A stretch of 64,000 bases of DNA, from assembly GCA_031255005.1 (NCBI GenBank), contig JAIRTH010000016.1, positions 5,859 to 69,858 on the forward strand, in the 5' to 3' direction. The position numbers and the translations under genes are program-made. This document shows, one piece after another, positions 16,564 through 60,734 of the stretch. The first letter of the stretch is position 1; each line of letters begins with the position of its first letter. The DNA is from Puniceicoccales bacterium. GTDB taxonomy: Bacteria; Verrucomicrobiota; Verrucomicrobiia; Opitutales; LL51. Below the pieces are notes generated by a model that saw only the letters and a program-made list of their open reading frames with translations, ran no database searches and had not been told where the DNA came from.

Positions 16564-16580
16564 TATGGTATAGGTGACTT

Positions 16581-18550: not shown

Positions 18551-18653
18551 ATAACACACAAGAAATCGTCATTCGCCATAAAACATGTATATTTTATTGT
18601 AATATAAATAACATATTATATAAAACCATCGCTATCTATCTTTTTGATAAAAA

Positions 18654-19247
18654 CTAGAAAATACGCTGCCTCGACACGACTTTCATTATCGCCTTTTGTG
18701 CATCCTGCACTTCTTTCACCAATTTGACAAGATCATTAGGTCTTTCATTAATATGCTGAAATAAGCTAGTCAAATAATCGCATGTAAATTTATCACAGCT
18801 CTTTTCATTCATTAATCTATTAGAATAACATACACAAGCTATACAAAACGTCTTCAAAGTCTTTAACTCAATGCGTTTAGAAATATCATTGGCTTGAGAT
18901 ATCATCAATTTGTTTATTGTAATATTTTTTTTCAGATAATTAATCAGCATCATTAACTTATTCATCGGAATAGCTTTTAACACTTCTACTACGAAATTGT
19001 ATACGACTTCAGATCGATTTTTTATACAAGAATGCCCGTCATCACTTATATAAACACCATGAGGGATCGAACAACATCTGCAAATAAGCTCACCTAATTC
19101 AGATATTTTACCATCTTCTGCTAAACATTCGGCTTCTGCAACAGTATAGCCACTCACAGCTATCTTACCAGCATTTGCCAATGATATGCCGAAAAACAAT
19201 GTCACACTCAGCGACAGCAACAATAATTTAGATTTATTAATTTTCAC
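18654..19247 (-). CDS. secreted Cys-rich orphan protein (197 aa)
   Basis: GTG start. Leader KLLLLSLSVTLFFGISLANA. 11 Cys including CRCC and CIACVC clusters. No recognised motif. Confidence 0.6.
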   Translation of the reverse strand: MKINKSKLLLLSLSVTLFFGISLANAGKIAVSGYTVAEAECLAEDGKISELGELICRCCSIPHGVYISDDGHSCIKNRSEVVYNFVVEVLKAIPMNKLMMLINYLKKNITINKLMISQANDISKRIELKTLKTFCIACVCYSNRLMNEKSCDKFTCDYLTSLFQHINERPNDLVKLVKEVQDAQKAIMKVVSRQRIF

Positions 19248-19383
19248 AACTCAATGATATTCGCACACCAAAATTCGAATGTCAAGCGAAAAATAAAATA
19301 AATTTCATAGACCAACCACATTCAAGGGAAGCTAAACTTTCCTTGACAACGGCCAGGCAGTGCATTGCATATGGTACACATTT

Positions 19384-19458
19384 GCCAGAGTAGCTCAGGG
19401 GTAGAGCAGAGGACTCATAAGCCTTTGGCCGGCGGTTCAAATCCGCCCTCTGGCACCA
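19384..19458 (+). tRNA. tRNA-Met (CAU), elongator type
   Basis: GCCAGAG acceptor pairing with CTCTGGC, then A-CCA. D arm GCTC/GAGC, anticodon loop CTCATAA, T arm GGCGG-TTCAAAT-CCGCC. A paired G1:C72 argues against an initiator. A4:T69/G5:C68 differ from the Ile2-like tRNA. Confidence 0.9.
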
Positions 19459-19534
19459 TAGTCGTAATAAAATATCAAAAATTTCTAATTTTTTTATTGA
19501 CATCTTAATTTTTTGATGAAAGGATAAGTTCATT

Positions 19535-21058: not shown

Positions 21059-21118
21059 TAGTTAAACGATAGGGTTTAGGCCTAGTAAATACCTCCGATA
21101 GTTTTATCAGAAACATCT

Positions 21119-21155
21119 AAAGCACAACGATTTCATGTCGTTGTGCTTTTAATTT
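21119..21155 (+). terminator. rho-independent terminator
   Basis: Perfect 12-bp stem aaagcacaacga / tcgttgtgcttt with 7-nt loop tttcatg, running into a T/A-rich tail. Lies 60 nt after the stop at 21058. Confidence 0.75.
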
Positions 21156-21196
21156 GAAAACTGATCTAAATGTAATTATAATTATCATCACTGATA

Positions 21197-22966
21197 ATGA
21201 AAAGACATAGATTATTTTGTGTACTATTGTGGTTTTTCTTTGCGATAATTAACATAATGCCAATTAAAATTAGCGCAAAACATCGAGGATCAAACACTTT
21301 TTGGTATAAAAAATCACAAAAAAAACGCCTTATAAATACAAAAACCGTAAAATTTAAGAAAAAACATTTAGCCACTATTCGCCGGAATAAAAAAACAAAA
21401 AAAACCAGAGAAAATATACATAAATTCTGGCGAAAAAGCCGTACCAAGCGACGTAATTTCTTAGATCAAAACTCCTATATATACCTCTACCCTATTCCAG
21501 CATATTACTCGCAACCCTCTATACCTCATATCTATACGCAACAAAACGAAACTTCAAATATCATAAACTCTCCTCATGTCGATACAGAATCTGTTGCTAG
21601 ACAAGCCCCATCGCATCAAAATCATATCCGTTATACCTATCAAAACCATGATGATTTCCATGGCAATGATAGCTTTACGCAACTGCCAGACGCTCAATAT
21701 CTTATTGATATAATGAAAGCTACATCACTAAGCCTATCATCTATCAATGATCCCTTCGCTATGATCGATGTGCTGAAAGAAAATATCGTTCAATTCGAAA
21801 ATTATTTCAATCAACTATATCACGAAAAAAAATTCCACACATTACCAGAAGATGGCAAAATAGTTTTAGCAGAACTAGCCAAAGTTAAAGAAAAATTAAT
21901 AGATATCGAGGCCTCTACCACCAAAGGTGTAAAAATAAAAAAAATCCTAAAAAATAAACCCTATAGCAACCTGATTTCTAATTTCAGCCAAAATAATTCC
22001 TTTGATATACTGGAAAATGAAATAATAAGCTCTTTCTACACTCTAGATCAGGATATTTTGCAAAGCATCATCAACAATACCAATGCTTTAATTAATGATA
22101 ATAGTATTTTTTATTTTCATCAATCCACCTCCATAGATGGCCTTCTCCATAACAATTTTTTCAAAAAAATATCCGAAGGCAAAGGAGGTCAAAATCCTAA
22201 TAATTTGGCCATGATGTCTCATCTAAGCCATTTCCTTTCCAATGCAACCAATGATATAAAGGAAAAATTACTAAAAAAAATCGCCGAATATATGAATCAT
22301 TGTATAGATCAAGCCGTTACTGGACTGCAACTTACAGGTTGTTTAGCCATAGCTTATGCCAGCACCGAAAAAGATAATAATTCCATAGAAAAAAATATCA
22401 TAGCCGTGCTGGTGGACATATACAAAAAGGAAATGCTAAATCGAATCCTTGTCAAAAGAGGCGCTGAAGAGCTAGAGGGCCTGGCCTATTTGACTGAATA
22501 CCTCGGCCATATTGTATTTCCATCCATTACAATGCCGCCATTCTCATTCACAGAATTTGGCATAGCATATATAGAAAATGAATGTGACCCTATAAAAAAT
22601 CTTGACAAAATTCTAAATAAAATAGCCGATAGCGAGGCCCTGGTGAAATTTATTCACAACGGAATTTACGATGGTGTGCCGATCGGGGAAATGCTATTCG
22701 AGGAAATAATAAAAAATGATACAAAATATCGGGAGCTAAAAAAAATCTGCGAAGGAACAGACTTCATCATTGAACCACCTAAAGATTCCGAGGGCAATTA
22801 TACAAATTTCATCAGCGATGATGCCAAAATTTATTGGATGATAACCAATGAAAATGAAGCAGATAAGTTTCAGCAAACTATATTGGAATCAAGACAAAAT
22901 ATCCTCTACAATTATAAAAAAGAGAAGACCGAGGAATTACTCAAGAAATACGGATATTTATATTAG
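21197..22966 (+). CDS. secreted orphan protein (589 aa): signal leader, polybasic tract, Tyr/Pro-rich linker, C-terminal domain with CxD motif
   Basis: Leader LFCVLLWFFFAIINIMPIKISA, then KKSQKKRLINTKTVKFKKKHLATIRRNKKTKKTRENIHKFWRKSRTKRRNF, then YIYLYPIPAYYSQPSIPHIY. HCIDQ is at residue 369. Confidence 0.7.
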   Translation: MKRHRLFCVLLWFFFAIINIMPIKISAKHRGSNTFWYKKSQKKRLINTKTVKFKKKHLATIRRNKKTKKTRENIHKFWRKSRTKRRNFLDQNSYIYLYPIPAYYSQPSIPHIYTQQNETSNIINSPHVDTESVARQAPSHQNHIRYTYQNHDDFHGNDSFTQLPDAQYLIDIMKATSLSLSSINDPFAMIDVLKENIVQFENYFNQLYHEKKFHTLPEDGKIVLAELAKVKEKLIDIEASTTKGVKIKKILKNKPYSNLISNFSQNNSFDILENEIISSFYTLDQDILQSIINNTNALINDNSIFYFHQSTSIDGLLHNNFFKKISEGKGGQNPNNLAMMSHLSHFLSNATNDIKEKLLKKIAEYMNHCIDQAVTGLQLTGCLAIAYASTEKDNNSIEKNIIAVLVDIYKKEMLNRILVKRGAEELEGLAYLTEYLGHIVFPSITMPPFSFTEFGIAYIENECDPIKNLDKILNKIADSEALVKFIHNGIYDGVPIGEMLFEEIIKNDTKYRELKKICEGTDFIIEPPKDSEGNYTNFISDDAKIYWMITNENEADKFQQTILESRQNILYNYKKEKTEELLKKYGYLY

Positions 22967-22973
22967 CATAAAT

Positions 22974-23948
22974 TCATAAATACCTAGATTTCATTTTGTT
23001 ATAAATCCAAGCATAGGTTTTTTCCAGACCAATTTTCAGAGAAACAGAGGGCTCCCAGTGTAAAAGATCTCTAATCATCTCATTATCACTATTTCGCCCT
23101 CTAACTCCTTTGGCCTCATTGGGTAAATAAATTCTCTTAAATTTCAAGCCGGCAATATCTTCAACCATGTCCACCAATTGATCGACCGCAACCAATTCGG
23201 TACTACCAAGGTTAAGTGGTTCAAGCACATTGCTTTTCATCAACCTGATCATGCCTTCAATACAATCATCTATATACATGAACGATCTAGTCTGCTTCCC
23301 ATCGCCCCAAATTTCAATGCTATCTTCGCCAGAAAGTTTAGCAGCCAAAACTTTTCTACAGATCGCAGCAGGAGCTTTCTCTCGGCCACCTTCGAAGGAA
23401 CCAAATGGGCCATAGACATTATGCAACCTAAATACCTTAGTATCAATGCCAAATTCTTCATAAAAATGGTGACACATCCTCTCACTAAACAATTTTTCCC
23501 AACCATAGCCATCCTCAGGCATGGCCGGATAGGCATCAGATTCTTTCAATCCAGGATTGGCGCAATCAGACTGTTTCGACTGGTTATAAACGCAGGCAGA
23601 TGAGGCAAAAAAATAACTTTTTACACCGTTATCTCTCGCTGCCAGAAGGAGATGTGTATTTATCAACACATTCAACATGCAATCGGCCCTGTGAGTTTCA
23701 ATAAACCCAATACCACCCATATCGGCCGCAAGATTATAAACCAAATCAACGTCACTCATGGCCGAATAGCAATTTCCTTTGTCACTCAAATCTAACACAA
23801 TGTTTTCCACATCGTCACAAATCTGATGCCATAGGTTAAGTGGTTTTATATCAATGGCTTTTAACTTTACTTCTTTTAAACTATTTAATCTTTTGACCAA
23901 ATGACCGCCAATAAAACCGCCAGCACCGGCAATCAAAACATACCCCAT
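22974..23948 (-). CDS. GDP-mannose 3,5-epimerase-like NAD-dependent epimerase (SDR)
   Basis: GAGGFIGGH Rossmann motif, NLAADMGGIGFI, ASSACVY, YGWEKL, HNVYGPFGSFEGGREKAPAAICRK, WGDGKQTRSF and GVRGRNSDN. These closely match my recollection of plant GME. Confidence 0.8.
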   Translation of the reverse strand: MGYVLIAGAGGFIGGHLVKRLNSLKEVKLKAIDIKPLNLWHQICDDVENIVLDLSDKGNCYSAMSDVDLVYNLAADMGGIGFIETHRADCMLNVLINTHLLLAARDNGVKSYFFASSACVYNQSKQSDCANPGLKESDAYPAMPEDGYGWEKLFSERMCHHFYEEFGIDTKVFRLHNVYGPFGSFEGGREKAPAAICRKVLAAKLSGEDSIEIWGDGKQTRSFMYIDDCIEGMIRLMKSNVLEPLNLGSTELVAVDQLVDMVEDIAGLKFKRIYLPNEAKGVRGRNSDNEMIRDLLHWEPSVSLKIGLEKTYAWIYNKMKSRYL

Positions 23949-23994: not shown

Positions 23995-25134
23995 TCATGG
24001 ATTTATTTCGGAAGAAATCAACGCAACCAGTTCATTGACAGCATCTTTCTCATCTATTGAACGCTTTACACATTGCCCAGATTTGTACAAATCTATCTTA
24101 CCCGGCAATCCTCCCACATAACCGAAATCCGCATCACCCATCTCTCCAATGCCATTCACTATACACCCCATCACAGCAATTTTCAAACCAGAAAACCTTG
24201 CCGTAGCCAGCTTTATGGCACAAAGAGTTTTTGCTAAATCGAACTGCGTGCGACCGCAGGAGGGACAGGCCACGTACTCGACCATCGTTTTTCGAACACC
24301 ACAGGCCTGCAGAATTTCATAGGCAACGCCTATCTCGTCGACCGGATCACCGGTTAAAGAAACTCGCATTGTGTCACCTATCCCCTTCAACAACAACGAT
24401 CCTATTCCAATGGCGCTCTTAACTCTGGCCATAGAACCGTCACCAGCTTCGGTCACACCCACATGCATCGGAAAATCGAATCCAATTTTATTAAATCTTT
24501 GACAGGCAAGCTCATAGGTCTCAACCATCGTGGACACACAACTGGATTTGAATGAAAAAACCATATCTTGGAATCCGCGATCAATGGCCACAGTCGCAAA
24601 CTCGATGGCGCTCTCAACCAACCCCGCCGGCCCATTCCCAAAATTTTCTATTATATGGCCATCCAATGACCCTTGATTTACACCAATTCGAATGCTTTTC
24701 CCCGCATTCTTGGCCGCTATCACAAACGCACCAAAGGAGTTAGCAATATTTTCAGCTCTGTTCTTTAGCAACGAATTTCGATCCGAATGTAAAAAATTCC
24801 CAGGATTTATCCTGACCTTATCTGCATATTTCAGTGCCTCGAAGGCGATTTTTTTTGAAAAATGAACATCGGCCACCAATGGCACAATCAACCCATAGGC
24901 TTTCAATTTGCTGCGGATATCACCCAAAGCTGCACAGGAACGTGTTGACGTAACCGCAAGCCTAACTATCTCACAACCAACATGATAAAGCTTCTTTATC
25001 TGGGAAATGGAAGCCTCTATCGCTTCGGTTTTCGTATTCGTCATGGATTGAACTCTTATTGGATTATTTCCGCCAAGACCCATATTTCCCAAAAAAACCT
25101 CCCTACTCTTCCGTCGATGCATCACAGCCACCAA
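23995..25134 (-). CDS. ispG: 4-hydroxy-3-methylbut-2-enyl diphosphate synthase IspG (GcpE)
   Basis: NPIRVQSMTNT, VRINPGN, and Fe-S ligand region YVACPSCGRT and GCIVNGIGEMGDADFG. Confidence 0.93.
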   Translation of the reverse strand: MVAVMHRRKSREVFLGNMGLGGNNPIRVQSMTNTKTEAIEASISQIKKLYHVGCEIVRLAVTSTRSCAALGDIRSKLKAYGLIVPLVADVHFSKKIAFEALKYADKVRINPGNFLHSDRNSLLKNRAENIANSFGAFVIAAKNAGKSIRIGVNQGSLDGHIIENFGNGPAGLVESAIEFATVAIDRGFQDMVFSFKSSCVSTMVETYELACQRFNKIGFDFPMHVGVTEAGDGSMARVKSAIGIGSLLLKGIGDTMRVSLTGDPVDEIGVAYEILQACGVRKTMVEYVACPSCGRTQFDLAKTLCAIKLATARFSGLKIAVMGCIVNGIGEMGDADFGYVGGLPGKIDLYKSGQCVKRSIDEKDAVNELVALISSEINP

Positions 25135-33757: not shown

Positions 33758-34147
33758 TCACTTCAACTTACATAAAATCGCCATCTTTGTCATTCCGCCA
33801 ACGGTTCTGTCAACCTGTTTTCCATCCTTAAAAAATACCAACGTCGGTATCCTCGTCACATTAAACTTTTCAGCCAACTTAGCCTCTTCTTCGATATTCA
33901 CTTTACAAACAACAATATCATCATTTTCTTCGGCAATTGAATCCAAAATCGGCCCCAGGGCTCGACAAGGGCCACACCACGGCGCCCAAAAATCTATCAC
34001 CATTGGTTTGGCCGACAAATCAACCATAGCCTCAAAATTTTCATTCGTTAAATTAATAATTCTTTCGGACTTCACTGCCACAGGATCAAATAAAAAAATA
34101 CCGCTAGTCAACACGCATATATAAAAAAACAAAAAAGATCCAGCCAA
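33758..34147 (-). CDS. membrane-anchored/exported thioredoxin
   Basis: WAPWCGPC active site and a thioredoxin-fold length, preceded by an N-terminal hydrophobic segment FLFFYICVLTSGIFLF. Confidence 0.88.
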   Translation of the reverse strand: MAGSFLFFYICVLTSGIFLFDPVAVKSERIINLTNENFEAMVDLSAKPMVIDFWAPWCGPCRALGPILDSIAEENDDIVVCKVNIEEEAKLAEKFNVTRIPTLVFFKDGKQVDRTVGGMTKMAILCKLK

Positions 34148-35939: not shown

Positions 35940-37118
35940 TCATCGATCTAGTGCGCTTTTCAACAAAATCAAGAATTCTTTGTTATTTTTTGTTTTTTTC
36001 ATTCTATTTATAAGTGCATCGATGGCCTCATCGGATTTTAATCCGCTAAGAGCTTTCCTGAGCGACGAAATTTTTCCCAAAACCTCGCCGGGCAGCAACA
36101 GCTCCTCCTTTCTGGTACCAGACGAATTTATATCTATGGCCGGATATAATCGCATATCGGCAATTTTCCTATCCAATACCACTTCCATATTCCCAGTACC
36201 TTTAAATTCTTGGAAGATAAGATCATCCATTTTGCTACCAGTTCCGACCAGTGCCGTAGCAATCAACGTCAAACTTCCTCCATTTTCCACATTACGTGCC
36301 GCTGAAAATAACTGCCTGGGCCTTTCCAAAGCTCGCACATCCACTCCACCAGACATGGTTCTGCCGCTGGACTGTATGGCATTATAAGCCCTTGCCAGCC
36401 TTGTAATTGAATCCAATAAAATCACCACATCTTTGCCAACCTCTACCAACCTTTTTGCTCTTTCAATGGCCAGCTCAGCCACCATAATCTGCCTGTACCT
36501 ATCCTCATCATTCGACGAAGCATAGAGCTCAGCCTGGACACTGCGTTGAAAATCCGTAACCTCCTCTGGCCGTTCATCTACCAATGCAATAATCAGATGA
36601 CAATCTCTGTGATTTTCTTTAATGCCTCGGGCTATGTTTTGTAATAAAGTTGTCTTACCAGTTCGAGGCGGCGCCACCACTAATCCACGCTGCCCTTTGC
36701 CAATGGGACAAAAAAAATCAATCATTCGATTGCTTAATTCACCATCTTCCACCTCAAGATTCAGCCATTCATTTGGAGCAATGATGGTCAAATCTTCAAA
36801 GCGCCGCATTGCACTACGTTTACCACTGGGCAAGCCATCTATACTGACCACCTGCACAACTTTCGGATTGGGAAAATCCACACGCGGCAAAACAAATGCT
36901 TCCAATTCCATACCCTTCTTAAGCCTAAACCTCGTGATGGAATCCTTCCCTATATAGGGATACTCCAAACGCTGTTTGCCGTTGGCATTCAATGGAATAA
37001 GCTGACCATATCGTCCACCGGGCTCCATATCTACAATCCCTGAAAATTGCCTCAAATTATCCACAGGGCAATCCTTCACTAAAATTTCTTCCATATATTC
37101 ATGCCGCATCAATGTCAC
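35940..37118 (-). CDS. rho: transcription termination factor Rho (short N-terminus)
   Basis: PIGKGQRGLVVAPPRTGKTTLLQNIA, LVDERPEEVTDF, and Q/R-loop regions. The N-terminal segment before the OB/CSD-like domain is about 25 aa shorter than in E. coli Rho. Confidence 0.93.
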   Translation of the reverse strand: MTLMRHEYMEEILVKDCPVDNLRQFSGIVDMEPGGRYGQLIPLNANGKQRLEYPYIGKDSITRFRLKKGMELEAFVLPRVDFPNPKVVQVVSIDGLPSGKRSAMRRFEDLTIIAPNEWLNLEVEDGELSNRMIDFFCPIGKGQRGLVVAPPRTGKTTLLQNIARGIKENHRDCHLIIALVDERPEEVTDFQRSVQAELYASSNDEDRYRQIMVAELAIERAKRLVEVGKDVVILLDSITRLARAYNAIQSSGRTMSGGVDVRALERPRQLFSAARNVENGGSLTLIATALVGTGSKMDDLIFQEFKGTGNMEVVLDRKIADMRLYPAIDINSSGTRKEELLLPGEVLGKISSLRKALSGLKSDEAIDALINRMKKTKNNKEFLILLKSALDR

Positions 37119-40461: not shown

Positions 40462-42891
40462 ATGAAAAGATTTTTTACACGCATGGCCGTAATATTTTGC
40501 TTAGCTATAAGTGCTTGCGCCATAACAACTTCCAATCAGGTCCAGGAAATATCCATAGCCAATCAGCAGTCATCAGAAGTATCAACAGCCAAACCAGTGT
40601 CACAGCCTGTGGCCTTATCGCCGGAGGAAAAAGTATTACCAAGCAAATTTTCCTTCGAAGATCTGAAATTCAAGCCATTGGAACCAACCATTGCCCATAT
40701 GTCTGAAACACTATTCATGGTAAAATGTCTAGAAGAAATCCACTACCTACACAAAAAACTCTCCATGATAAATTCCAAGGAAGTCATCAAAGATTTTCTA
40801 TCAAGTCTGGACTCCGCAAAAATGTATATGCTTCAATCTGAAGTGGATAACTACATGGATAGATTTTCTCTGACCCTGGATATTTTTCTAAGAGCTGGCA
40901 GTCTCAACCCAGCATTTACCATATTTGAAACCTTCAGAAACAAGTTGGTAAATAGAATAAAATCAATCCTTGATAATCTGGAAACCAAAGAATTTTCACT
41001 GGCCGAAAGCGATGCATTTTGTATAGATAGAGAAAAAGAACCATGGCCAAAGAATGAGATCGAAGCCGATTCGCTCTGGGATAAACGCCTGCGCTTTGAA
41101 CTTACAACCGAAATCCTTGCCCAGGAATTGAAAACCAAGAAAAAAATAGAGGATAGGGAAAATAAAGAAAAAGATGAAAAAAAAGCAGAAAAAACAGAGA
41201 AACAGCCCAAAACCATTGAACAAAAAGTCGCCAAGGCAAAAAAAAATATGAAGCAACGCTATGAAAATATACTGAAAATGTTCTCGGATATAGAACCATG
41301 GATAATCCAAGAATATTTTTTAAATAGCCTGGCAAAGAGATATGATCCTCATTCCAGCTTTTTGTCCAGTGACACCATGGAAGACATGAACACATCGCTC
41401 CATAACTCATTTGTGGGCATAGGCGCCCATCTCATCGATGACAATGGTTACTGCACTGTGCAGGAACTTATACCAGGTGGTCCCGCGGCCAAAAGTGGCC
41501 ACATCCATCCAGGAGATAAGATAGTTGCCATTGCCCAGGGCGATGAAAAATCTGTAAATATCATTGGCATGATGCTCCATAAAGTTGTAAAACTGCTAAA
41601 AGGAAAAAAAGACACCGTCGTAAAAATAACCATTCAGCCCAAGGAATCTGATCTGGAAGATCAAAATGTGGTAACTCTGATACGCGACGAAATCGAATTG
41701 ACCGCAAGTAGGGCTTCAGGAAGGCTATATAGCATCGGTGATCAAAGCCACAAAATTGGATACATAAAATTGCCCGGATTCTATGGCCACAATGACAAGG
41801 AGCCTAAAAATTCCAACAGCACTCACGATGTGCTAGAACTATTGAAAAAACTGAAATCAAACCATATCTCTGGCTTGATACTTGACCTACGAGATAATGG
41901 CGGCGGATTACTGGATGAGTCAGTTTCTCTGGCTGGCTTGTTCATAGATAAGGGTCCAGTGGTGCAAATACATGGTCAATTTGGCAATACCGAATGCCTG
42001 TGGAGCGAAAAAAATACCATCCAATGGCAAGGCCCCATGATAGTGTTGGTCTCAAAATTCAGTGCATCCGCCGCCGAAATATTACCCGGTGCCCTCAAGG
42101 ATCATCATCGGATCATAGTAATCGGCGAAGAAGCAACCCACGGAAAAGGATCTGTACAGGCACTGATCCCCATAGATAATTTTATAAAATTGGTAAAAGA
42201 TAATAAACTTGGTGCTGCCAAAATAACGCTGCAAAAATGGTATCTACCCAGCGGTAACTCCACTCAAATAAAAGGAGTTGAAGCTCACATTCCACTCAGT
42301 TCGTTCGATTCACTAGTCCCACTTGGCGAATCTTCTCTGCCCAACGCACTGCCCTGGGATTCGATAGCAGCAGCCAAGTATGATTACGTAGCCAATGCCA
42401 AACACTTTGGATTTTTTGTCGATGAAAAAACCATAGATACTCTGGCAACTAAAAGTAAAACCAGACAAAATTCGCTGCCGGAATTCAAGCTACTCACCGA
42501 ACGCATAGCCAATGCTAAGGAAAAATTGGACAATAAACAAATATCTCTAAACCTAGATAAACGCCGCCGAGAAAAAGAAAGCGAAGAAAATTTTAAGGAA
42601 AAGATTGAAAAGGAATTCGAAAAACTCGAAGCATCAGATTATAAGTACGCCGAAATCGTCCTCGATGCAGTCGAAAAGCAAAGCAAAGAAAAAGACAATA
42701 AAAAAGAACCAAAAAAATATAGACCGGATACCCATCTACGAGAAGCAATTAGGGTAATGATTGACTGGCTCAATCTCTCGGAATTACCAAAACCTGACCA
42801 ACTTTTAAGCTATCTGGAGCCTTTAATTTATCGCCATTGGCCGCAAAAATTACATTCCATTTCTCCGAAGATCCATATACCTTTTGGCTGA
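40462..42891 (+). CDS. tail-specific / C-terminal processing protease (S41 family, Prc-like) with K/E-rich insertion
   Basis: Signal leader, PDZ region (GIGAHLIDDNGYCTVQELIPGGPAAKSGHIHPGDKIVAI), S41 catalytic region (LDLRDNGGGLL, SASAAEI, THGKGSVQ), and a lysine/glutamate-rich insert around residues 220-260. Confidence 0.85.
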   Translation: MKRFFTRMAVIFCLAISACAITTSNQVQEISIANQQSSEVSTAKPVSQPVALSPEEKVLPSKFSFEDLKFKPLEPTIAHMSETLFMVKCLEEIHYLHKKLSMINSKEVIKDFLSSLDSAKMYMLQSEVDNYMDRFSLTLDIFLRAGSLNPAFTIFETFRNKLVNRIKSILDNLETKEFSLAESDAFCIDREKEPWPKNEIEADSLWDKRLRFELTTEILAQELKTKKKIEDRENKEKDEKKAEKTEKQPKTIEQKVAKAKKNMKQRYENILKMFSDIEPWIIQEYFLNSLAKRYDPHSSFLSSDTMEDMNTSLHNSFVGIGAHLIDDNGYCTVQELIPGGPAAKSGHIHPGDKIVAIAQGDEKSVNIIGMMLHKVVKLLKGKKDTVVKITIQPKESDLEDQNVVTLIRDEIELTASRASGRLYSIGDQSHKIGYIKLPGFYGHNDKEPKNSNSTHDVLELLKKLKSNHISGLILDLRDNGGGLLDESVSLAGLFIDKGPVVQIHGQFGNTECLWSEKNTIQWQGPMIVLVSKFSASAAEILPGALKDHHRIIVIGEEATHGKGSVQALIPIDNFIKLVKDNKLGAAKITLQKWYLPSGNSTQIKGVEAHIPLSSFDSLVPLGESSLPNALPWDSIAAAKYDYVANAKHFGFFVDEKTIDTLATKSKTRQNSLPEFKLLTERIANAKEKLDNKQISLNLDKRRREKESEENFKEKIEKEFEKLEASDYKYAEIVLDAVEKQSKEKDNKKEPKKYRPDTHLREAIRVMIDWLNLSELPKPDQLLSYLEPLIYRHWPQKLHSISPKIHIPFG

Positions 42892-43562: not shown

Positions 43563-44330
43563 GTGCCAACAAAAAATTTCTTAAGTTTCCGAGAATTGGT
43601 TTTGCTAGATAAACCAACAAAAATAGATATAATTCATAATTGCAATGATTTTATCGCACTAAATAAACCAAATTTCATCGAACTGGACGATTCGGCTCAA
43701 CAGCATGGTAAAAATATAGTGACCGCCCTCCGAGGAAAAAAGCCAGAGGCGTTTTACAGATCCGTGTACCCACTGGATTGCCATATCAGCGGCTGCGCGA
43801 TCATCGCCACCCATCGCAAAGCTTCGGAATTACTTAGAAATGCCTATGGATCCGAGATCCTGCTATTCAGGTTCACGATGCTTTGTAAAAACACAGAACA
43901 TGTTGAATCTGAGATTATTTGCGAGCTGCCATTGGCCAAGCATTTTTCAAAGCCCATGGCCATCATTTCTCGGAACACTGGAAAAAAATCTCGGACAAAA
44001 TTTAAATTAATGGAACAAATAGGCGATTTTTCCATCTATGAAGCTTCCTGCCATTACCTACGATATCATCAACTTCGCATCCATGGAGCCACTTGTGGCC
44101 TAAAGCTATTGGGCGAAGATATCTACAATGATGTGCCCATTCCAAGTCTCAGGTATTTTAAAAAAATTCATTTCGAAAAAAAACCATCCACAGCTCTGTT
44201 CCACAGTCAATGTATTCATCTTAGTCAGGTCATTTTGCATTCATCCATCTATGGCCATGAAATAACTCTGGAAGCTAAGCCACCGAAAAACTTTGAAATT
44301 TTATTGAAAATCATCAGAAAATTTTCATGA
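43563..44330 (+). CDS. RluA-family pseudouridine synthase-like protein (second copy)
   Basis: FIALNKPNF, PLDCHISGCAII (Asp retained; RLD becomes PLD) and YHQLRIH. The ORF-track start at 43290 is antisense to the LysM gene. The first plausible in-frame start after it is the GTG at 43563, so the start is uncertain. Confidence 0.65.
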   Translation: MPTKNFLSFRELVLLDKPTKIDIIHNCNDFIALNKPNFIELDDSAQQHGKNIVTALRGKKPEAFYRSVYPLDCHISGCAIIATHRKASELLRNAYGSEILLFRFTMLCKNTEHVESEIICELPLAKHFSKPMAIISRNTGKKSRTKFKLMEQIGDFSIYEASCHYLRYHQLRIHGATCGLKLLGEDIYNDVPIPSLRYFKKIHFEKKPSTALFHSQCIHLSQVILHSSIYGHEITLEAKPPKNFEILLKIIRKFS

Positions 44331-44806
44331 GAATTGGCATTGGTTTTGATGTTCATCGACTGGTTTTTGGCCGAGATCTGATACTTGGTGGCATAAAAAT
44401 ACCTAATGACAAAGGACTTCTTGGACATTCCGATGCGGATTGTCTATGCCATGCTTTGGCGGATGCCATCCTCGGAGCCTTGGCTTTACCAAATATAGGG
44501 CAGCTATTTCCCGACGATGATGAAGGCAATCGCGGATTAGTATCACTAAAAATCCTGACCAAAGCCACACTAATGGCCATGGAGCGAGGTTATCGCATTG
44601 TAAATATCGATGCTATATTGAGGGCCGAGCGACCGCAACTGGCACCTTTTATATCGAAGATGCAAGAAACCTTGGCTGCTGCCATGGATATAAATTCTTC
44701 GCAGATTGGCATTAAAGCGACAACCAATGAAGGTCTTGATGCCATCGGAAGTGGCGACGCCATAGCCTGCCACGCCATATGTCTACTGAACGAAATCAAT
44801 AAATAG
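44327..44806 (+). CDS. ispF: 2-C-methyl-D-erythritol 2,4-cyclodiphosphate synthase IspF
   Basis: MRIGIGFDVHRL, GHSDADCLCHAL and KATTNEGL motifs. Start overlaps the upstream stop (ATGA). Confidence 0.95.
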   Translation: MRIGIGFDVHRLVFGRDLILGGIKIPNDKGLLGHSDADCLCHALADAILGALALPNIGQLFPDDDEGNRGLVSLKILTKATLMAMERGYRIVNIDAILRAERPQLAPFISKMQETLAAAMDINSSQIGIKATTNEGLDAIGSGDAIACHAICLLNEINK

Positions 44807-53828: not shown

Positions 53829-54317
53829 TTACATTTCGACCCTTTTGTAGTTAAAATTAGAAAAAACATGTTTCGGCGCATTGGCCCTGATTTTCAGAAA
53901 ATTTGCCGATGTGGCCATGGCCAATTTCACGGTACAATGATATAGTGTACAGGCACCATCCAGCGAATTTTTTATATCCTTTGCAAAGGTAATTACAAAG
54001 ATTTCGCCATCCTGGGCCAAGGGCAAATGAGCCATGTCTGCGCCAAGAATAGTTTTATAGATATTCTCGCCACCCACAACTTCTAAAACTCTCACCATAA
54101 ACATATCACCAGATTCAGCCAAGTCAAATACATCGCCGGAAGTGATGGCCAAAAAGTTTTTCTCGGCATTCAGCAATTTCATCATATTTACTCCTGTGTC
54201 CAAAGCCGTGATTTGGCTAATCCACAAAGTTATGAGACCCGGCATGGCTACGCCTACCAATCCCATGGCCAACAATACCTCTAGTAAAGAAAACCCAGCT
54301 CGTTTGTTGCCATACAT
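53829..54317 (-). CDS. prepilin-type N-terminal cleavage/methylation domain protein (pseudopilin/pilin-like)
   Basis: MYGNKRAGFSLLEVLLAMGLVGVAM is the class III signal (G/F-S-L-L-E). The ATG at 54317 is preferred over the ORF-track start at 54398, which would overlap the upstream gene. Confidence 0.75.
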   Translation of the reverse strand: MYGNKRAGFSLLEVLLAMGLVGVAMPGLITLWISQITALDTGVNMMKLLNAEKNFLAITSGDVFDLAESGDMFMVRVLEVVGGENIYKTILGADMAHLPLAQDGEIFVITFAKDIKNSLDGACTLYHCTVKLAMATSANFLKIRANAPKHVFSNFNYKRVEM

Positions 54318-54324
54318 ATATATT

Positions 54325-55017
54325 TTATTCAAGCAGTTTGATAATTTTATCCGCCGAGTCCAATGTAATGATGGTTCCGTTGGGCAGAAACACACCACCT
54401 TGAATCGGTGTATTTTTTAAAAACTTCACATGGAACTGATTAGAAGCATTTACATTGCAACTACCCAGTCCAACGGCATAGACAATGGGCTTTATCGAAG
54501 CAGATTCCGTGGGCCTGCCAATGGCATCGATATCCCGAAATGCCATGGCTAGGTTCTTATTACCTTCTTTAAATAAATAGCTGTCCCAAAAATACTTATC
54601 ACTTGGCACACCGGCCATAACATCCCCAATCGAATCCTTTGGTATAAAAAACACTGACTTTGGAAGCAAGATTTCCCTTTGCTTTTCCATAATCGGCTCT
54701 CCATTGCCACCGGTCTTTGGCATGACGACTAGAATTCTTCGATGGGAATACTCCGAATCAGCTGACACATCTACCATGATCCGAATTTTTGAATGATGAT
54801 ACAGCGCATGCAATTTGGCATAGTTCATTGTATTGAAAAAAATTTGCTCGGCTATGACCAAAGATTTTACTCCGTTGTCTGGTTGCAACAGCTTGATTCC
54901 GAAGCCTATTACTAAAATTAGAATCCCCAAGGCAGAAATTATTTCGATCAGAGTAAATGAAGCCGATCTATCTCGCTGCCAAATCATAAAACCTTGGTCA
55001 TTATTTTCCATAACCAT
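54325..55017 (-). CDS. prepilin-type N-terminal cleavage/methylation domain protein (pseudopilin/pilin-like)
   Basis: RSASFTLIEIISALGILILVIGF is the class III signal motif with Glu at +5. Confidence 0.75.
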   Translation of the reverse strand: MVMENNDQGFMIWQRDRSASFTLIEIISALGILILVIGFGIKLLQPDNGVKSLVIAEQIFFNTMNYAKLHALYHHSKIRIMVDVSADSEYSHRRILVVMPKTGGNGEPIMEKQREILLPKSVFFIPKDSIGDVMAGVPSDKYFWDSYLFKEGNKNLAMAFRDIDAIGRPTESASIKPIVYAVGLGSCNVNASNQFHVKFLKNTPIQGGVFLPNGTIITLDSADKIIKLLE

Positions 55018-55163
55018 AGCTTGGCAACCATATTATGAACCGGACAAGCCAGGACATATTGTGCTATAACAAGTTAATAGATAAGATTGTGACATAAATG
55101 TTATTTGTAAATTTCATGTAAAACATTGACATGCTTTGGCGAAAATATTAGGTTTGCATCACT

Positions 55164-56432
55164 ATGTGCTATAAAATGAAAAGACTTATGACGTTGTTTA
55201 CTATTTTATTGGTTCCTAACTTGATAAGTGCGATCAGCATCGATGATCCATTTATCAAGAATTTGATTGAAACTAAAAAAACTGAATTTGAAGATGCTTT
55301 TATGGACGAGGACAAAATCAATTTGCTCTTGGCCAGTGACAACCCAAAAGATCTATATAAAATTGTTAAAGATCGCACTAAATTTATTTTCCTTTATGCA
55401 ATTAAAATACTAACTGACGCCGTCATATACTATAAGGGAGATGGAAAAGATTATAAAGAAATTTGTCATAAAGAAATCGAGACTGGTGAGTCAATCCTTG
55501 AGCCATTGCTTCCTTATATGTTAAATGTTAACCTGATGACCAGTAACGAATTTTTTACTCAAGACTCTCAGCATGCCGATCTATACGAATGCCTGATACA
55601 TATCTTGTTAATGATATTTGAAGCAAGAGATCTGAACGAAGTAGCTCAAAATGTGCAAAAAACCATATATGAGCCACTGTACAACGCTGGTATGAAATTT
55701 TTTCAATTACCAATAGAAACAATTTTCAAAGAATATAGCGAGAAATCTTATCTTGGGCCTCGGTTTCATCCAGACGGAAATCGTTCTGATGATTGGTTAT
55801 GTTACAACCAAAGTTACGATTTATATACTCCCAGTAAATCACAAGATCAATGTGCTTCCGTTATGTATATGATTAGCTTTACCTGTTTTCTGCTAAAATT
55901 TCTTGGATTCGATGTATATAATTTGGAGCAAACAATTGATAAAGCAGGTCAAACTGTTGGAACTTACATAGAATCATATAATAAAGTTAATGAATTTTGT
56001 TATAAAAATGTAAATGATATTTTAAATGAAAATGATGGCCAATGTTATTCAGAAATTGATAACGCGATAGAAGATTTTGGCATAAAAGGATATAATTATT
56101 TAGCAAAAAAGCTCACCGAAAAGAAAATTGAAATCGAAAAATACGAAGAATATAAAAATGAAATTTGTAAAAATAGAGATTTACCCATCCAGCCTGAAGA
56201 TAACAGTAATGAAAAACCTATAGAAAAAATTACTCCATCAGAATCTATCCGAAGGTCTAAAAGTATGTCAGACCTAAATAGCTCGTTTAAGCAATCAAAT
56301 AAAATCAAAAATTTGAATAAATCTGACCCCATTGAAGAAAAAGAAGAAGAAGAAGAAGAAGAAAAAGAAGAAGAAGGAGGAGAAGAAGAAGAAGAAGAAA
56401 ATAATACGTGCTTCAACTGCAATCTCTTGTAA
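55164..56432 (+). CDS. orphan exported protein (422 aa) with poly-Glu tract and C-terminal CaaX-like box CNLL
   Basis: Leader RLMTLFTILLVPNLISA. C-terminus EEKEEEEEEEKEEEGGEEEEEENNTCFNCNLL*, read directly from the codons tgc ttc aac tgc aat ctc ttg taa. Confidence 0.7.
   Translation: MCYKMKRLMTLFTILLVPNLISAISIDDPFIKNLIETKKTEFEDAFMDEDKINLLLASDNPKDLYKIVKDRTKFIFLYAIKILTDAVIYYKGDGKDYKEICHKEIETGESILEPLLPYMLNVNLMTSNEFFTQDSQHADLYECLIHILLMIFEARDLNEVAQNVQKTIYEPLYNAGMKFFQLPIETIFKEYSEKSYLGPRFHPDGNRSDDWLCYNQSYDLYTPSKSQDQCASVMYMISFTCFLLKFLGFDVYNLEQTIDKAGQTVGTYIESYNKVNEFCYKNVNDILNENDGQCYSEIDNAIEDFGIKGYNYLAKKLTEKKIEIEKYEEYKNEICKNRDLPIQPEDNSNEKPIEKITPSESIRRSKSMSDLNSSFKQSNKIKNLNKSDPIEEKEEEEEEEKEEEGGEEEEEENNTCFNCNLL
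56334..56401 (+). repeat. 68-nt homopurine GAA/GAG-rich tract (poly-Glu coding)
   Basis: An uninterrupted purine run, gaagaaaaagaagaagaagaagaagaagaaaaagaagaagaaggaggagaagaagaagaagaagaaaa, inside the 55164 ORF. Confidence 0.9.
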
Positions 56433-56491
56433 TTTTACAAAAAATTTAAAAATATTAACGAATTTTGACAACCATATAAAATATATCTGCT

Positions 56492-57304
56492 ATGTATGAT
56501 CTAGTTAAAAAGTTTATGTCGACCATTATGTTCTTGGGAGCGATCAGCTTCATCAACGGTGATCAATTCAAAGATTGGGTAATTCAGCAAAGAAGCGTAT
56601 GCTACATAGAATATGTGGTAAATATCTGGCCCGGTGATGTTAATCGATGTCCCGCTAACGAAATTGGTATTTTTGGTAGCGAGTTTGGCAAATACGCCTC
56701 AAACTGTTTAGAAAACAACCAACCGACCTTTGAATCTAAAGGATTTACCTATAATGGATTATATGTAAGAGGTCTCGAATTTTTTAAACACCTAGAACAA
56801 TTTATGTACGGCGTAGCAAAATTTTTCGACTATGAAATCTCTGATAAAATAGAAAACATCATATATCTACCTGATTTGAGTAATGGCAGCGTAAGTAGTG
56901 ATTATCCAGAAGAAATACGAGAAAATTTAAATAAAGGACTATGCATTTTATTTGGTTGCAAGAAGGTAAAATCTGCCTGTAAAATTATATGTAAACATTT
57001 GTGCAAAAATATGAAAAAAGCTCTCTGGTTTGCCTGTACTATAGAAAATGAATTTAATGCAGAAGATTTGGAAGACTTTAAAAATGCTTTCAATAAACTA
57101 AAGCAAATTGGATGCAAGATGGAGTATTTGGAGCAATATGTAAATAAAAAAATAAATGACACCATTGAAAAACTTAATGGTGAGTCACATATAAACGTAA
57201 GTGATGACGATTCATATAACCATTACTTAGTTGAATTACCTAAAAGCCAAGAAACAGATGACTCCTCTTCGAAAGATAGAGGATCTTCCTGTATTTTCCT
57301 GTAA
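56492..57304 (+). CDS. orphan exported Cys-rich protein (270 aa) with C-terminal CaaX box CIFL
   Basis: Leader FMSTIMFLGAISFING. C-terminus DRGSSCIFL*, from codons tgt att ttc ctg taa. Contains a Cys/Lys-rich segment CILFGCKKVKSACKIICKHLCKNMKK. Confidence 0.7.
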   Translation: MYDLVKKFMSTIMFLGAISFINGDQFKDWVIQQRSVCYIEYVVNIWPGDVNRCPANEIGIFGSEFGKYASNCLENNQPTFESKGFTYNGLYVRGLEFFKHLEQFMYGVAKFFDYEISDKIENIIYLPDLSNGSVSSDYPEEIRENLNKGLCILFGCKKVKSACKIICKHLCKNMKKALWFACTIENEFNAEDLEDFKNAFNKLKQIGCKMEYLEQYVNKKINDTIEKLNGESHINVSDDDSYNHYLVELPKSQETDDSSSKDRGSSCIFL

Positions 57305-57341
57305 TGTACAGTAATTTAAAGACTTATGACTATAATAATAG

Positions 57342-57370
57342 AGAGGCCCATCTAGGCCTCTTCATTTTTT
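57342..57370 (+). terminator. rho-independent terminator for the 56492 gene, overlapping the clpP stop
   Basis: Stem AGAGGCC / GGCCTCT (7 bp) with 6-nt loop catcta, followed by tcatttttt. The loop contains the clpP stop codon on the other strand. Confidence 0.55.
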
Positions 57371-57972
57371 GGTTTGCTTTTTATCACTTCATCGACAATG
57401 CCATAGTCCTTTGCCTCTGAAGATATCATGAAATAGTTTCGATCGGAATCCTTTTCGATTTTCTCCAACGGTTGGTTAGTGCACTCGGACAATACCATAT
57501 TTAGAGTTTTTTTCCAACGAAGTAATTCTTTGGCGGCAATCGAAATATCCGAGGTTTGACCACCGGCACCACCCGAGGGCTGATGTATCATAACCCTACT
57601 GTTAGGCAGTGCGTAACGTTTCCCCTTGCTACCAGCAGCAAGCAACACCGTGGCCATGCTGGCTGCCTGCCCGACGCAGTAGGTAACCACATCGCAATTC
57701 ATGAATCTCATCGTATCATATATGGCCATGCCTGCGGTGATACTACCCCCCGGAGAATTAATATAGAGATGGACATCTTTTTTCGGATCTTCCATCTGCA
57801 AGAATAAAAATTGCGCAACGATGGCATTGGCAACGAAATCGTCTATGGAAGTGCCAAGAAAAATTATTCGGTCCTTTAACAGACGACTATATATATCCCA
57901 GGAACGTTCCTGTCTACCATCCCGTTCATAGACATAGGGTAATGGAAGATAATGTTCGTTAACTATTTTCAT
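57352..57972 (-). CDS. clpP: ATP-dependent Clp protease proteolytic subunit ClpP
   Basis: [23 protein letters not shown], the catalytic Ser context GQAASMA, and HQP. Confidence 0.96.
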
Positions 57973-59447
57973 TGTAATTCAGTTTTTTCTTTGAATGAAG
58001 TACTTTCTTCCTCAAATTCTTTGGTCTTGCTAGGCCTATTACCTTTGGTTGCTGCAGATTTTTTTCCACGCTTTGGCTTTAATTCAGCCACATTTTCTGG
58101 AAGTTCAGATTGAGATTTTTTTGAACGATCCTCGTCCAAGCTTGGATGATCATTTGTGTTCTCATTCACTAAGAAATCCAACGTTTTACTAAACAATGCC
58201 CGGCGCTGGATATCCTGAACTCTGGCCCTATCATTCTTAATTTCATCGATTAATTTATCCGGCGTTGTTCGCAGCACCGAAGCCTCTTGGATGATCATAC
58301 GACTGACTTCGTCGGAAGATACCGTGATCTTTTCCTCAATGGCGATGCGCTCCAGAATAAAACTAATTTTTGCTCTATCATGGGCCAGGGTCGAGCTGTC
58401 ACCATATAGTTCATCTTTATGCTTTTCCAGTTCATTTGGATGTACCCCCTCCCGAATCTGTTGCTCGAAAAACGTCCGCAGCACCTGAGCCCGCTCGTGT
58501 TCCACAGCACTTTCGGGCACATCAAAATCCACACTGGCAATTAACTTTCTAACCAATTGCTCCCGCTGCTCTAGCCGCCCTACCTGATGTTTACGTTTTT
58601 TTAAATCCTCTCGAATCTGAACACGTAACTCATCCAGTGTATTGGCATTGAGTTTTGCAAGCAGTTTATCATCAAACCCTGGCAGAACTTTTTCCCGCAC
58701 TTCAAAAACATGAACCATGTATTTGGCACTTTTACCAGCCAGAGGCTTTATATAAAAATCCTCCGGGAATGTGGTTTCAATCTCCCTATCCTCTTCGGCT
58801 TTCATGCCCACGATTCCATCTATAACTGCCTTAACACCAGGACTATCTTCTGCACCAGCTTCTTCCCAGGTATTTTTCTGTTCACCCCAAATAGGCAATG
58901 ATGCATCCAGCTTAGCAATTTCAGAACCATCGGCCAGAGTGCCTTGATAGGATAGCCGCACAAAATCCCCCTTTTTGGCATTGCGATCAACGGTAACATA
59001 GTCAGCATTGTAATTCCTCAATTGCTCTAATGCGCTATCCACCTCACCATCAGTAATTTCCGCATTTATTGGGGCCAAGTCAATATGCCTATAATCTATC
59101 AATTCAAAATCTGGTTTGGTATCTATGGTCACGATGAGCTCCTTTTCACCGCTCTCCTTGTCATTGAAATCGGCTTTTACCACCGAAAAAATTCTGGTTC
59201 CATGTTCTTTGGTCATGGTCTCCATCGCCCGAGAATAGAGCTGCTCATCTAGTTTAGCCTTCACATCTTTGGCAAACTTAACGCGGACAATCGCTTCTGG
59301 AACGTGCCCCTTTCTAAACCCAGGCATTTTTACGTCCCTTGAAATTGTCTTAACGAGCAAACTTTCCTCATTTTGCGCCTCATCTTTACTCACTGTCACA
59401 GTAAAAACCTTGCGCACATTGCTCACATCCTTTATTTCACTTTTCAC
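57969..59447 (-). CDS. tig: trigger factor (Tig) with basic C-terminal extension
   Basis: N-terminal ribosome-binding motif PGFRKGHVP, a central PPIase-like region, and a C-terminal arm. An extra tail reads [25 protein letters not shown]. The stop overlaps the clpP start. Confidence 0.9.
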
Positions 59448-59585: not shown

Positions 59586-60734
59586 ATGAAAAAAATGAAA
59601 GAAAAAATAATGCTTTTTGGCGCGACCGGGTCCATCGGAAGCAATGTCTTGGAAGAGCTTAGAGAACACAGACAGTATTTCGATTTGGTCGGCATCGCAG
59701 CCAGGGTCAATGTGGACAAACTTGCCGAAATATCTCGGGAATTTTCTGTAAAAACTGCAGCAGTGAACAGCAAAACTCGTATAGATACAGCAAAATTTTG
59801 TCCTGGTTGCAGAATTTTTCGCGGCGAACAGGCCATGGCCGAGGCGGTTTTGGCCACCGATTTTGACATTCTTTTGATGGCAACCAGCGGCATAGCTGGC
59901 ATTGCGGCAACGATGAATGCTATCTCATTGAAAAAGAAGATAATAATAGCTAGCAAAGAAATTCTAGTAACCAGTGGAAAATTCCTATGCCCATTGGCTA
60001 AAAAAAACAAAGTGGAACTTTTTCCTCTTGATAGTGAACATAATGCAATTTTTCAGTGCCTCAAAGGCGAAGATAGGAAGTCTGTGAGACAAATATGGCT
60101 AACGGCCTCCGGTGGGCCATTTCTGGATTATGACATGGACTCCTTGGAGCATGTAACTCCAGCCCAAGCACTTAAACACCCAACCTGGTCCATGGGAAAA
60201 AAAATAACCATAGATTCAGCAAGCCTTGCGAACAAAGGACTAGAGGTAATCGAAGCTCGATGGCTGTTTGATCTGGCGCCCCAGCAAATAAAAGTTACCA
60301 TTCATCGCCAGAGCTTAGTACATTCACTGGTAGAATTCATAGATGGGTCAATTCTTGCCCAAATTAGCGAAAAATCCATGAGATTTCCAATAAAAAATTG
60401 CCTTTTTTTCCCTTATAGACAGTACAGTGACCAGAAAACTGTTTCATTTTTAGAACCAATAAATTTCACTTTCCAGCCACCAGATGAGGGAAAATTTCCA
60501 TGTCTGGCTTTGGCCAAAGCTAGTTTGGAAGCCGGCGGCATAATGCCCACTGTCTTCAATGCGGCCAACGACGTGGCTGTTGATTTATTCCTAGATGGCA
60601 AAATAAAATTTACCCAAATCCCAACCATCATTGAGCAACGGATGCATGAAACAGAAAACTTTGAGCCAGAATCAGTTGATGAAATATTCGCCCTGGATGC
60701 CGAAGTAAAAAAAATTGCCAGAGCTTTTGAGTAA
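59586..60734 (+). CDS. dxr: 1-deoxy-D-xylulose 5-phosphate reductoisomerase Dxr
   Basis: LFGATGSIGSN, DSEHNAIFQCL, LTASGGPF, HPTWSMGKKITIDSA and NKGLEVIEA. Confidence 0.95.
   Translation: MKKMKEKIMLFGATGSIGSNVLEELREHRQYFDLVGIAARVNVDKLAEISREFSVKTAAVNSKTRIDTAKFCPGCRIFRGEQAMAEAVLATDFDILLMATSGIAGIAATMNAISLKKKIIIASKEILVTSGKFLCPLAKKNKVELFPLDSEHNAIFQCLKGEDRKSVRQIWLTASGGPFLDYDMDSLEHVTPAQALKHPTWSMGKKITIDSASLANKGLEVIEARWLFDLAPQQIKVTIHRQSLVHSLVEFIDGSILAQISEKSMRFPIKNCLFFPYRQYSDQKTVSFLEPINFTFQPPDEGKFPCLALAKASLEAGGIMPTVFNAANDVAVDLFLDGKIKFTQIPTIIEQRMHETENFEPESVDEIFALDAEVKKIARAFE

Follow-up and report, generated by a model that had tools for sequence, protein, structure and literature searches.

In a 64,000-nt stretch of DNA from a Puniceicoccales bacterium (hereafter the window), we identified two adjacent orphan genes whose products end in a sequence resembling the CaaX prenylation box of eukaryotic proteins, with Cys exactly at position -4 in both (CNLL and CIFL, each followed directly by the stop codon). 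The proteins were deposited under a metagenome-assembled genome (MAG) named "Puniceicoccales bacterium", on a contig of 89,964 bp, and their genes share an AT-rich islet. Judged from their sequences, the two neighbouring proteins are plausible, unproven candidates for secreted proteins that are prenylated by a host. The islet and the features within it are as follows.

55020 to 57340, no strand: AT-rich islet with both orphan genes, between a pseudopilin-like gene on one side and clpP on the other, defined by G+C content (GC) and GC at third codon positions (GC3)
55164 to 56432, forward strand: orphan gene 1, 422 aa (MDR0351394.1, LBH49_01985); the Joint Genome Institute (JGI) call starts at Met5; Cys-rich body predicted to be helical and long tail predicted to be disordered
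55164 to 55232, forward strand: predicted Sec signal peptide of protein 1, (MCYK)MKRLMTLFTILLVPNLISA, followed by ISIDD; by inspection and hydropathy
56172 to 56408, forward strand: hydrophilic Cys-free tail of protein 1 (aa 337-415), from modelled coil and hydropathy
56409 to 56429, forward strand: C-terminal CFNCNLL of protein 1, read from the codons and matched in an independent assembly
56492 to 57304, forward strand: orphan gene 2, 270 aa (MDR0351395.1, LBH49_01990); the JGI call starts at Met13; Cys-rich body predicted to be helical and tail predicted to be disordered
56492 to 56560, forward strand: predicted Sec signal peptide of protein 2, MYDLVKKFMSTIMFLGAISFING, followed by DQ; by inspection, Kyte-Doolittle maximum 1.99
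57182 to 57289, forward strand: hydrophilic Cys-free tail of protein 2 (aa 231-266), from modelled coil and hydropathy
57290 to 57301, forward strand: CaaX box C267-I-F-L of protein 2, read from the codons and matched in the same independent assembly

Gene 1 ends in ...EEKEEEEEEEKEEEGGEEEEEENNTCFNCNLL before its stop codon at 56430-56432, and gene 2 ends in ...SSKDRGSSCIFL before its own. The box of protein 1 is C419-N-L-L (56418-56429), with a second cysteine, Cys416 (56409-56411), three residues upstream. A preliminary description of the window, made from the letters alone, had read these ends as CFNCNLL and SSCIFL, and both readings are confirmed by the codons and by the Logan assembly of run SRR14710884, in which a contig (L005) is 100% identical to window positions 56370-57445 and spans both C-termini as well as the clpP junction. 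Because this independent assembly is identical, the C-terminal ends are not the product of the assembler, and an artefact of that kind is ruled out. At the composition of the islet a stop codon is expected every ~12 codons, and the probability of a stop-free run is 7e-17 for gene 1 and 5e-11 for gene 2. Since open runs of 422 and 270 codons are so improbable, both open reading frames (ORFs) are real genes; a non-coding reading was considered and is ruled out by these stop-free probabilities (<1e-10).

The two proteins follow a common plan: a Sec-type leader is followed by a helical body rich in Cys and then by an acidic or Ser-rich tail that lacks Cys and stops abruptly in C-x-Phi-L (Phi denoting a hydrophobic residue). 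By inspection and hydropathy, both leaders have the features expected for Sec export and cleavage by signal peptidase I: the n-region is basic, the hydrophobic h-region is 10-15 residues long, and the residues at -3 and -1 are small. In protein 1 the basic n-region is followed by a 14-residue hydrophobic core (Kyte-Doolittle maximum 2.06) and by I-S-A at -3 to -1. A lipoprotein reading was rejected, as there is no lipobox of the form [LVI][ASTVI][GAS]C and no Cys in or just after either leader. No similarity is detectable between proteins 1 and 2, or between either of them and any other ORF of the window, and the shared ending is therefore either convergent or retained through full sequence divergence.

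The distribution of cysteines sets the endings apart from the residues before them. Protein 1 has 8 Cys in the body, none in the tail before the terminal motif, and C416 and C419 in the motif itself; protein 2 has 10 in the body, again none in the tail, and C267 in the motif. The even counts in the bodies (8 and 10) fit disulfide bonding after export, and Cys is absent from all 115 tail residues of the two proteins together. Single-sequence AlphaFold2 models have a mean predicted local distance difference test score (pLDDT) of 36 for protein 1, with helices to residue 336 and coil from 337 to 422, and of 35 for protein 2, with an all-helical body and coil from 231 to 270; both models are too poor for a fold search. 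In the 20 residues before the box, hydropathy is -2.46 in protein 1, the second lowest of 50 proteins, and -1.64 in protein 2, while the jump from this hydrophilic linker to the hydrophobic last three residues ranks first among the 50 in protein 2 and third in protein 1. The models weakly suggest that in both proteins the box sits on a flexible, disordered hydrophilic linker. The tail of both proteins looks designed. In protein 1 it includes the long poly-Glu tract that had been described ahead of the C-terminus, which we place at aa 391-412 (56334-56399), or about positions -10 to -32. At the level of DNA this tract is rich in (GAA)n and encodes a 22-residue run of Glu, Lys and Gly; the Logan contig breaks within it, and in-frame slippage there could make its length variable.

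Both boxes are of the class recognised by geranylgeranyltransferase I (GGTase-I), as had been proposed. The canonical target profile of this enzyme is Cx[V/I/L][L/F/I/M/V], its a1 position being tolerant (PMC11304957). In comparison with published screens, CNLL fits this profile, having LL at a2 and X, and CIFL, with Phe at a2, resembles the CSFL end of the geranylgeranylated Gγ5. In a yeast reporter, human GGTase-I modifies CSFL together with CNLI, and CQLL to about 50% (PMC11152559). Neither CNLL nor CIFL as an exact tetrapeptide turned up in the papers and supplements that we searched.

From the gene structure and the motif we infer export, release, contact with a host and lipidation. In the explanation that we tentatively prefer, though it falls short of being probable, both proteins are exported by Sec and released into a host, where host GGTase-I lipidates the terminal Cys and the bodies become tethered to a host membrane. 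Sec would first carry both proteins across the inner membrane, and they would then leave the cell by way of a type II or pseudopilin-dependent apparatus, in vesicles or through lysis. The producer would be an Opitutales/Puniceicoccales symbiont lying free in the cytoplasm or nucleus of a flagellate, where released proteins would meet the cytosolic enzymes of the host. Host GGTase-I would lipidate Cys419 and Cys267, Cys416 might also be S-acylated, and the long flexible linker would tether the helical bodies to the host membrane. If the bacterium is not enclosed in a vacuole, proteins secreted in two steps would already be in the host cytosol. Secretion by such a two-step route, with the symbiont lying free inside the host cytoplasm or nucleus, is a plausible way of reconciling a Sec leader with delivery to the host. 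The preliminary description had left that fit open. The more specific scenario, in which a verrucomicrobial symbiont free in a termite-gut flagellate exports Sec-leader proteins that its host geranylgeranylates, we consider doubtful.

What is known of related bacteria bears on the lifestyle that this explanation assumes. The only relative that we found, described below, carries the prefix Gsp477, which denotes a Glyptotermes sample, a lower termite. By its accession, JAIRXD, this relative lies in the range covered by the MAGs of Mies et al. 2024 (PMC11707648, PMC11257099), a set in which small-genome Opitutales are restricted to lower termites and have genomes of <1.5 Mb, lowered GC and nucleotide transporters. 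Mies et al. 2024 regard those Opitutales as relatives of the intranuclear Ca. Nucleococcus and as putative endosymbionts of flagellates, and the "Nucleococcus cluster" includes protist endosymbionts of the nucleus as well as of the cytoplasm (PMC8204192). Housekeeping genes make up the window, with AT-rich islets that hold signal-peptide orphans in between, a pattern compatible with a host-associated lifestyle and no proof of one. Low GC marks both orphans, and the window has other islets like theirs, which is a typical effector-like genomic setting. The 64-kb window contains no rRNA, and a literature search on parabasalid GGTase-I found nothing usable.

Several points weigh against the host-lipidation account, and chance is a serious rival to it. 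The two proteins could be ordinary lineage-specific periplasmic or surface proteins in which a C-x-hydrophobic-L end has arisen from Cys-rich, AT-biased coding, with no role in a host; we regard such a coincidence as possible, on the doubtful side. Over the about 50 gene-sized ORFs of the window, Cys at -4 was observed 3 times against 0.84 expected (P = 0.05) and C-x-[LIVFM]-L twice against 0.028 expected (P = 3.6e-4), and these P values are only nominal because the C-terminal motif was picked out after the fact, in a single window of a larger genome scan. The third Cys at -4 belongs to the thioredoxin at 33758-34147 (reverse strand), which ends CKLK and, as a housekeeping protein, is a clear chance instance; it was correctly noted beforehand that no other orphan of the window has Cys at this position. 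Adjacent pairs with C-x-[LIVFM]-L are expected 1.4e-5 times per window. Among six-frame stop-to-stop segments of at least 30 codons, Cys at -4 occurs in 3% and C-x-[LIVFM]-L in ~0.2% (2/1037 non-target segments), a background that lifts the adjacent-pair expectation to about 2e-4. Cys content is 3.2% in both proteins, twice the window average of 1.6%, and a GC3 of ~0.3 favours Phe, Ile, Leu, Asn and Lys; with proteins so rich in Cys, and with Cys, Phe, Ile and Leu all favoured by AT-rich coding, the chance rate is raised. In having Sec leaders the two proteins are also unlike any proven CaaX effector, and Price et al. describe chance CaaX ends on housekeeping proteins in most bacteria (PMC2916131).

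Against coincidence stands the fact that both ends belong to neighbouring orphans of one overall architecture, in a lineage for which life inside eukaryotic cells is suspected. With two such ends in 50 genes and adjacent pairs expected only 1e-5 to 2e-4 times, the motif pair is nominally beyond chance, and set against the local composition of the tails the endings stand out much more, being far less likely still.

The second set of points concerns relatives, or the scarcity of them. A word-indexed search of 5.8 billion proteins with both orphans gave self-matches only, as did a full HMMER scan of 1.84 billion cluster representatives with the 422-aa protein; both databases include metagenomes and Sequence Read Archive (SRA) assemblies. 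Searches of Pfam, NCBIfam, PDB, PHROG and PADLOC found nothing above noise for either protein, and no record matched exactly the sequence of the 422-aa protein, of its JGI version, of the pseudopilin or of ClpP. By these searches both proteins are strict, lineage-specific orphans, in agreement with the preliminary description, and for neither was an orthologue recovered in which the terminal Cys could be compared. A scan of genome contigs for trigger factor yielded a single relative, Gsp477_bin142 (GCA_031268545.1), with 77% identity in Tig. This MAG is collinear with the window on both sides of the islet: its tig contig (L001) stops 120 bp into clpP, and its pseudopilin-dnaE contig (L002) begins inside the pseudopilin gene. 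A JGI contig (L003) likewise holds only about 110 bp upstream of the pseudopilin. A metagenome scan with the Tig alignment, in which the patterns were too short, gave one irrelevant match of 34% (L004). For the MAG studied here an intracellular lifestyle is something we infer, and its place in the lower-termite families, its host and the GGTase-I of that host are putative.

In these assemblies of related organisms, the end of L001 and the starts of L002 and L003 all fall at or next to the islet borders, inside clpP and at the 5' end of the pseudopilin gene. The breaks may be due to a region that is strain-variable, AT-rich or of low complexity and is hard to assemble in relatives as well.

Delivery raises the remaining difficulties. 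The 64-kb window contains no genes of a type III secretion system (T3SS) or type IV secretion system (T4SS), and none for the secretin, ATPase or platform of a type II secretion system (T2SS; GspD, GspE and GspF); the only T2SS-type genes in the window are two pseudopilin-like genes that adjoin the islet. An ORF with an ATP-synt_ab domain (35940-37118) was considered as a T3SS ATPase and rejected, as it is Rho. To our knowledge, the host-prenylated bacterial proteins described so far all lack a Sec leader and are delivered by a T3SS or T4SS. A second signal, polybasic or palmitoylated, is usual in known prenylated proteins, and the linkers here are acidic and not polybasic. The proposed likeness of CFNC to Ras-type dual lipidation sites is no more than a resemblance. 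The leader of protein 2, moreover, exists only with the first ATG, and the start codon is ambiguous, the JGI call beginning at Met13, so that the claim of N-terminal hydrophobic leaders on both proteins stands with this dependence for the second. The larger claim that the two are a pair of host-lipidated effectors is partly supported: the boxes, the hydrophilic Cys-free tails, the orphan status in an AT-rich islet and the lineage speak for it, and the lack of T3SS and T4SS genes in the window against it.

Two further genes of the window encode proteins that could act on the products of the islet within the bacterium. The thioredoxin-domain protein at 33758-34147 has an N-terminal hydrophobic segment and may be an exported thiol-disulfide oxidoreductase that services the Cys-rich exported orphans. 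A tail-specific protease, Prc/Tsp, is encoded at 40462-42891 (forward strand), with S41, PDZ and TSP_NTD domains and a signal peptide. Prc/Tsp-family enzymes recognise the apolar C-termini of periplasmic proteins, and this recognition could be relevant to proteins ending in NLL or IFL. As an alternative to prenylation, the C-terminal module might accordingly have a bacterial role, as a disulfide or metal site (through a free thiol or CFNC), as an apolar end read by Prc/Tsp, or as a secretion signal resembling the E-block. With the body Cys even in number, the tail Cys of protein 2 would be left without a partner and the two of protein 1 as a CxxC pair, and an exported-looking thioredoxin and a Prc/Tsp protease are both at hand in the window. 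Other orphans of the window have an acidic tail followed by ...SIL or ...ISL, and a Glu-rich "E-block" near the C-terminus is known in Dot/Icm substrates (PMC13081727). Traits of that kind are seen in the Glu tract of protein 1 and the acidic, Ser-rich tail of protein 2, while type IVB secretion system (T4BSS) genes, like those of any other T4SS, are missing from the window. A Sec leader and a type IVB signal on one protein would be an unusual combination, the Prc idea leaves the Cys unexplained, and the shape linker-C-x-Phi-L is not that of any bacterial signal known for sorting, anchoring or modification. On balance we consider a purely bacterial role unlikely.

Host prenylation of bacterial proteins has precedents in Legionella AnkB and the Pel effectors, which are farnesylated or geranylgeranylated by the host (PMC2916131, PMC13081727), and in Salmonella SifA, which is geranylgeranylated and also S-acylated on a nearby Cys (PMC4951486), and on the basis of in silico surveys Price et al. 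proposed that CaaX mimicry is widespread (PMC2916131). Like AnkB and the Pel/CMP effectors, the islet proteins would combine a eukaryote-type CaaX box on an unrelated body with a protist-dwelling producer, low-complexity features and, in protein 1, a Glu-rich stretch near the C-terminus. The Legionella proteins differ in being Dot/Icm (T4BSS) substrates that have no Sec leader and whose prenylation has been shown by experiment (PMC2916131, PMC13081727). The islet proteins, in contrast, have Sec-type leaders, no T4SS in the window and no sequence similarity to AnkB or Pel, and are known from their genes alone.

The C-terminus of SifA reportedly reads CLCCFL, a reading attributed to Reinicke et al. 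2005. SifA, taken here together with GtgE, shares with the islet proteins a box of the GGTase-I type in which a2 is Phe and X is Leu (CCFL versus CIFL) and a second Cys just upstream, as in CFNCNLL, and this extra Cys is a loose parallel. It differs in being a T3SS-2 effector of known fold and partner, with no Sec leader, no long acidic linker and no homology to either protein. Among eukaryotic proteins, Gγ5 (CSFL) and Rap1B (CQLL) have the same types of tetrapeptide, either a polar a1 followed by LL or x-F-L, and likewise carry the box after a flexible "hypervariable" linker; they are cytosolic, however, and the linker of Rap1B is polybasic whereas the islet linkers are strongly acidic. Type II secretion substrates of intracellular bacteria offer a different parallel, with a cleavable Sec leader and a Cys-rich body that would suit folding in the periplasm, and pseudopilin genes adjoin the islet. 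T2SS substrates have no defining sequence signal, and the genes for secretin, ATPase and platform are those missing from the window. We know of no T2SS substrate that is prenylated by a host. In motif, substrate type and linker the islet proteins resemble host-prenylated CaaX effectors and may belong with them, a membership that is not established.

If the scenario of a verrucomicrobial symbiont in a termite-gut flagellate is correct, it would be the first case of host prenylation being hijacked beyond the T3SS and T4SS effectors of pathogens. Neither Verrucomicrobiota nor a protist endosymbiont, here presumably a mutualistic one, would have provided an earlier case. It would also mean that CaaX mimicry can arise de novo on orphan proteins. 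It would be a variation on a known mechanism, with Sec leaders, acidic linkers and a verrucomicrobial protist symbiont, and no new type of system. The dealings of uncultured bacterial endosymbionts with the termite-gut flagellates that house them are almost unexplored, and the secreted orphans of these bacteria are unreadable by homology. Few short motifs predict a concrete, host-dependent biochemistry as a CaaL box does, in a form that can be tested cheaply, and it could provide a first handle on the effector biology of this symbiosis. If the host-lipidation account is wrong, the pair is a caution that chance can give orphan genes with Cys-rich, AT-biased coding an ending that looks like CaaX.

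The islet is not the only one of its kind in the window. A larger AT-rich stretch at 14000-23000 (GC 0.28-0.37) holds six signal-peptide orphans without family matches, interrupted by two housekeeping genes (16581-18550) and a tRNA-Met (19384-19458).

14302-14613, 14813-15484, 15650-16153, 18654-19247 (reverse strand), 19535-21058 and 21197-22966: orphan genes of this stretch, each with a signal peptide and no family match

The ORFs at 14813 and 15650 are paralogues with 57% identity. Those at 14302-14613 and 19535-21058 have an acidic tail that gives way to a hydrophobic end, ...SIL or ...ISL, with no Cys, and a common C-terminal signal among the window orphans is possible on the basis of these sequences. 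Elsewhere in the window, genes of the methylerythritol phosphate (MEP) pathway are retained at 23995-25134, 44327-44806 and 59586-60734 (ispG/gcpE by Pfam; ispF and dxr by inspection), and the bacterium therefore makes its own isoprenoid precursors. No protein prenyltransferase-like gene is present in the window.

GC is 0.26-0.36 across the 2.3 kb of the islet (~55020-57340) and 0.39-0.50 in its flanks, and GC3 is 0.28 and 0.31 in the two orphan genes against 0.42 in housekeeping genes. The AT-richer islet of the preliminary description is thus upheld, as is its placement between pseudopilin genes, one canonical and one with a degenerate motif, and a convergent clpP. The features at the borders of the islet are as follows.

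53829 to 54398, reverse strand: pseudopilin gene, 189 aa, with a canonical prepilin motif, G|FSLLE (GFxxxE); Pfam N_methyl 4.6e-5, TIGR02532
54325 to 55017, reverse strand: pseudopilin-like gene, 230 aa, divergent from gene 1, with a degenerate N_methyl motif (Pfam E = 0.049, below threshold)
56455 to 56482, forward strand: promoter-like site TTAACG-16-TAAAAT ahead of gene 2; weak evidence
57341 to 57362, no strand: G+C-rich hairpin with T-runs on both strands, terminator-like and common to gene 2 and clpP
57352 to 57972, reverse strand: clpP, convergent with gene 2, identified by Pfam and NCBIfam and preceded by tig

Promoter-like sites in the region are no more numerous than the shuffled expectation. 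On the left of the islet, dnaE comes after the two pseudopilin-like genes. The 230-aa gene has orthologues with 60-62% identity in two other termite-gut assemblies, and it may be part of a type II secretion or type IV pilus-like apparatus.

The composition of the islet also raises the question of its origin. An exact 13-nt direct repeat, AAAGACTTATGAC, occurs at 55180-55192 and 57318-57330 (16/18 over a longer match) and brackets the islet, with one copy within the start of gene 1 and the other just past the stop of gene 2. The repeat is near chance expectation, yet its position is suggestive of an insertion scar. The islet could accordingly be foreign DNA, possibly from an AT-rich protist host, or DNA in decay, in which the boxes would be eukaryotic relics or without function and the genes perhaps unexpressed. 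The low GC3 and the bracketing repeat would be in keeping with this, as would the eukaryote-like look of the low-complexity tails (poly-Glu, or rich in Asn, Lys and Ser) and the interruption of the usual clpP-clpX linkage at the islet. Such an origin is nevertheless improbable: no homologue of any origin appeared in the protein searches described above, the long ORFs are intact, and bacterial-type Sec leaders would not go with cytosolic eukaryotic CaaX proteins. The locus has no mobile-element genes, and its only signature of that kind consists of short repeats at about chance level. On the clpP side, the order tig-clpP is kept both in the window (57352-59447) and in the related MAG (L001, 5518-7096), clpX does not follow clpP, and the orphan islet lies in the position of clpX. 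Over its first 40 aa, ClpP does not differ between the window and the related MAG.

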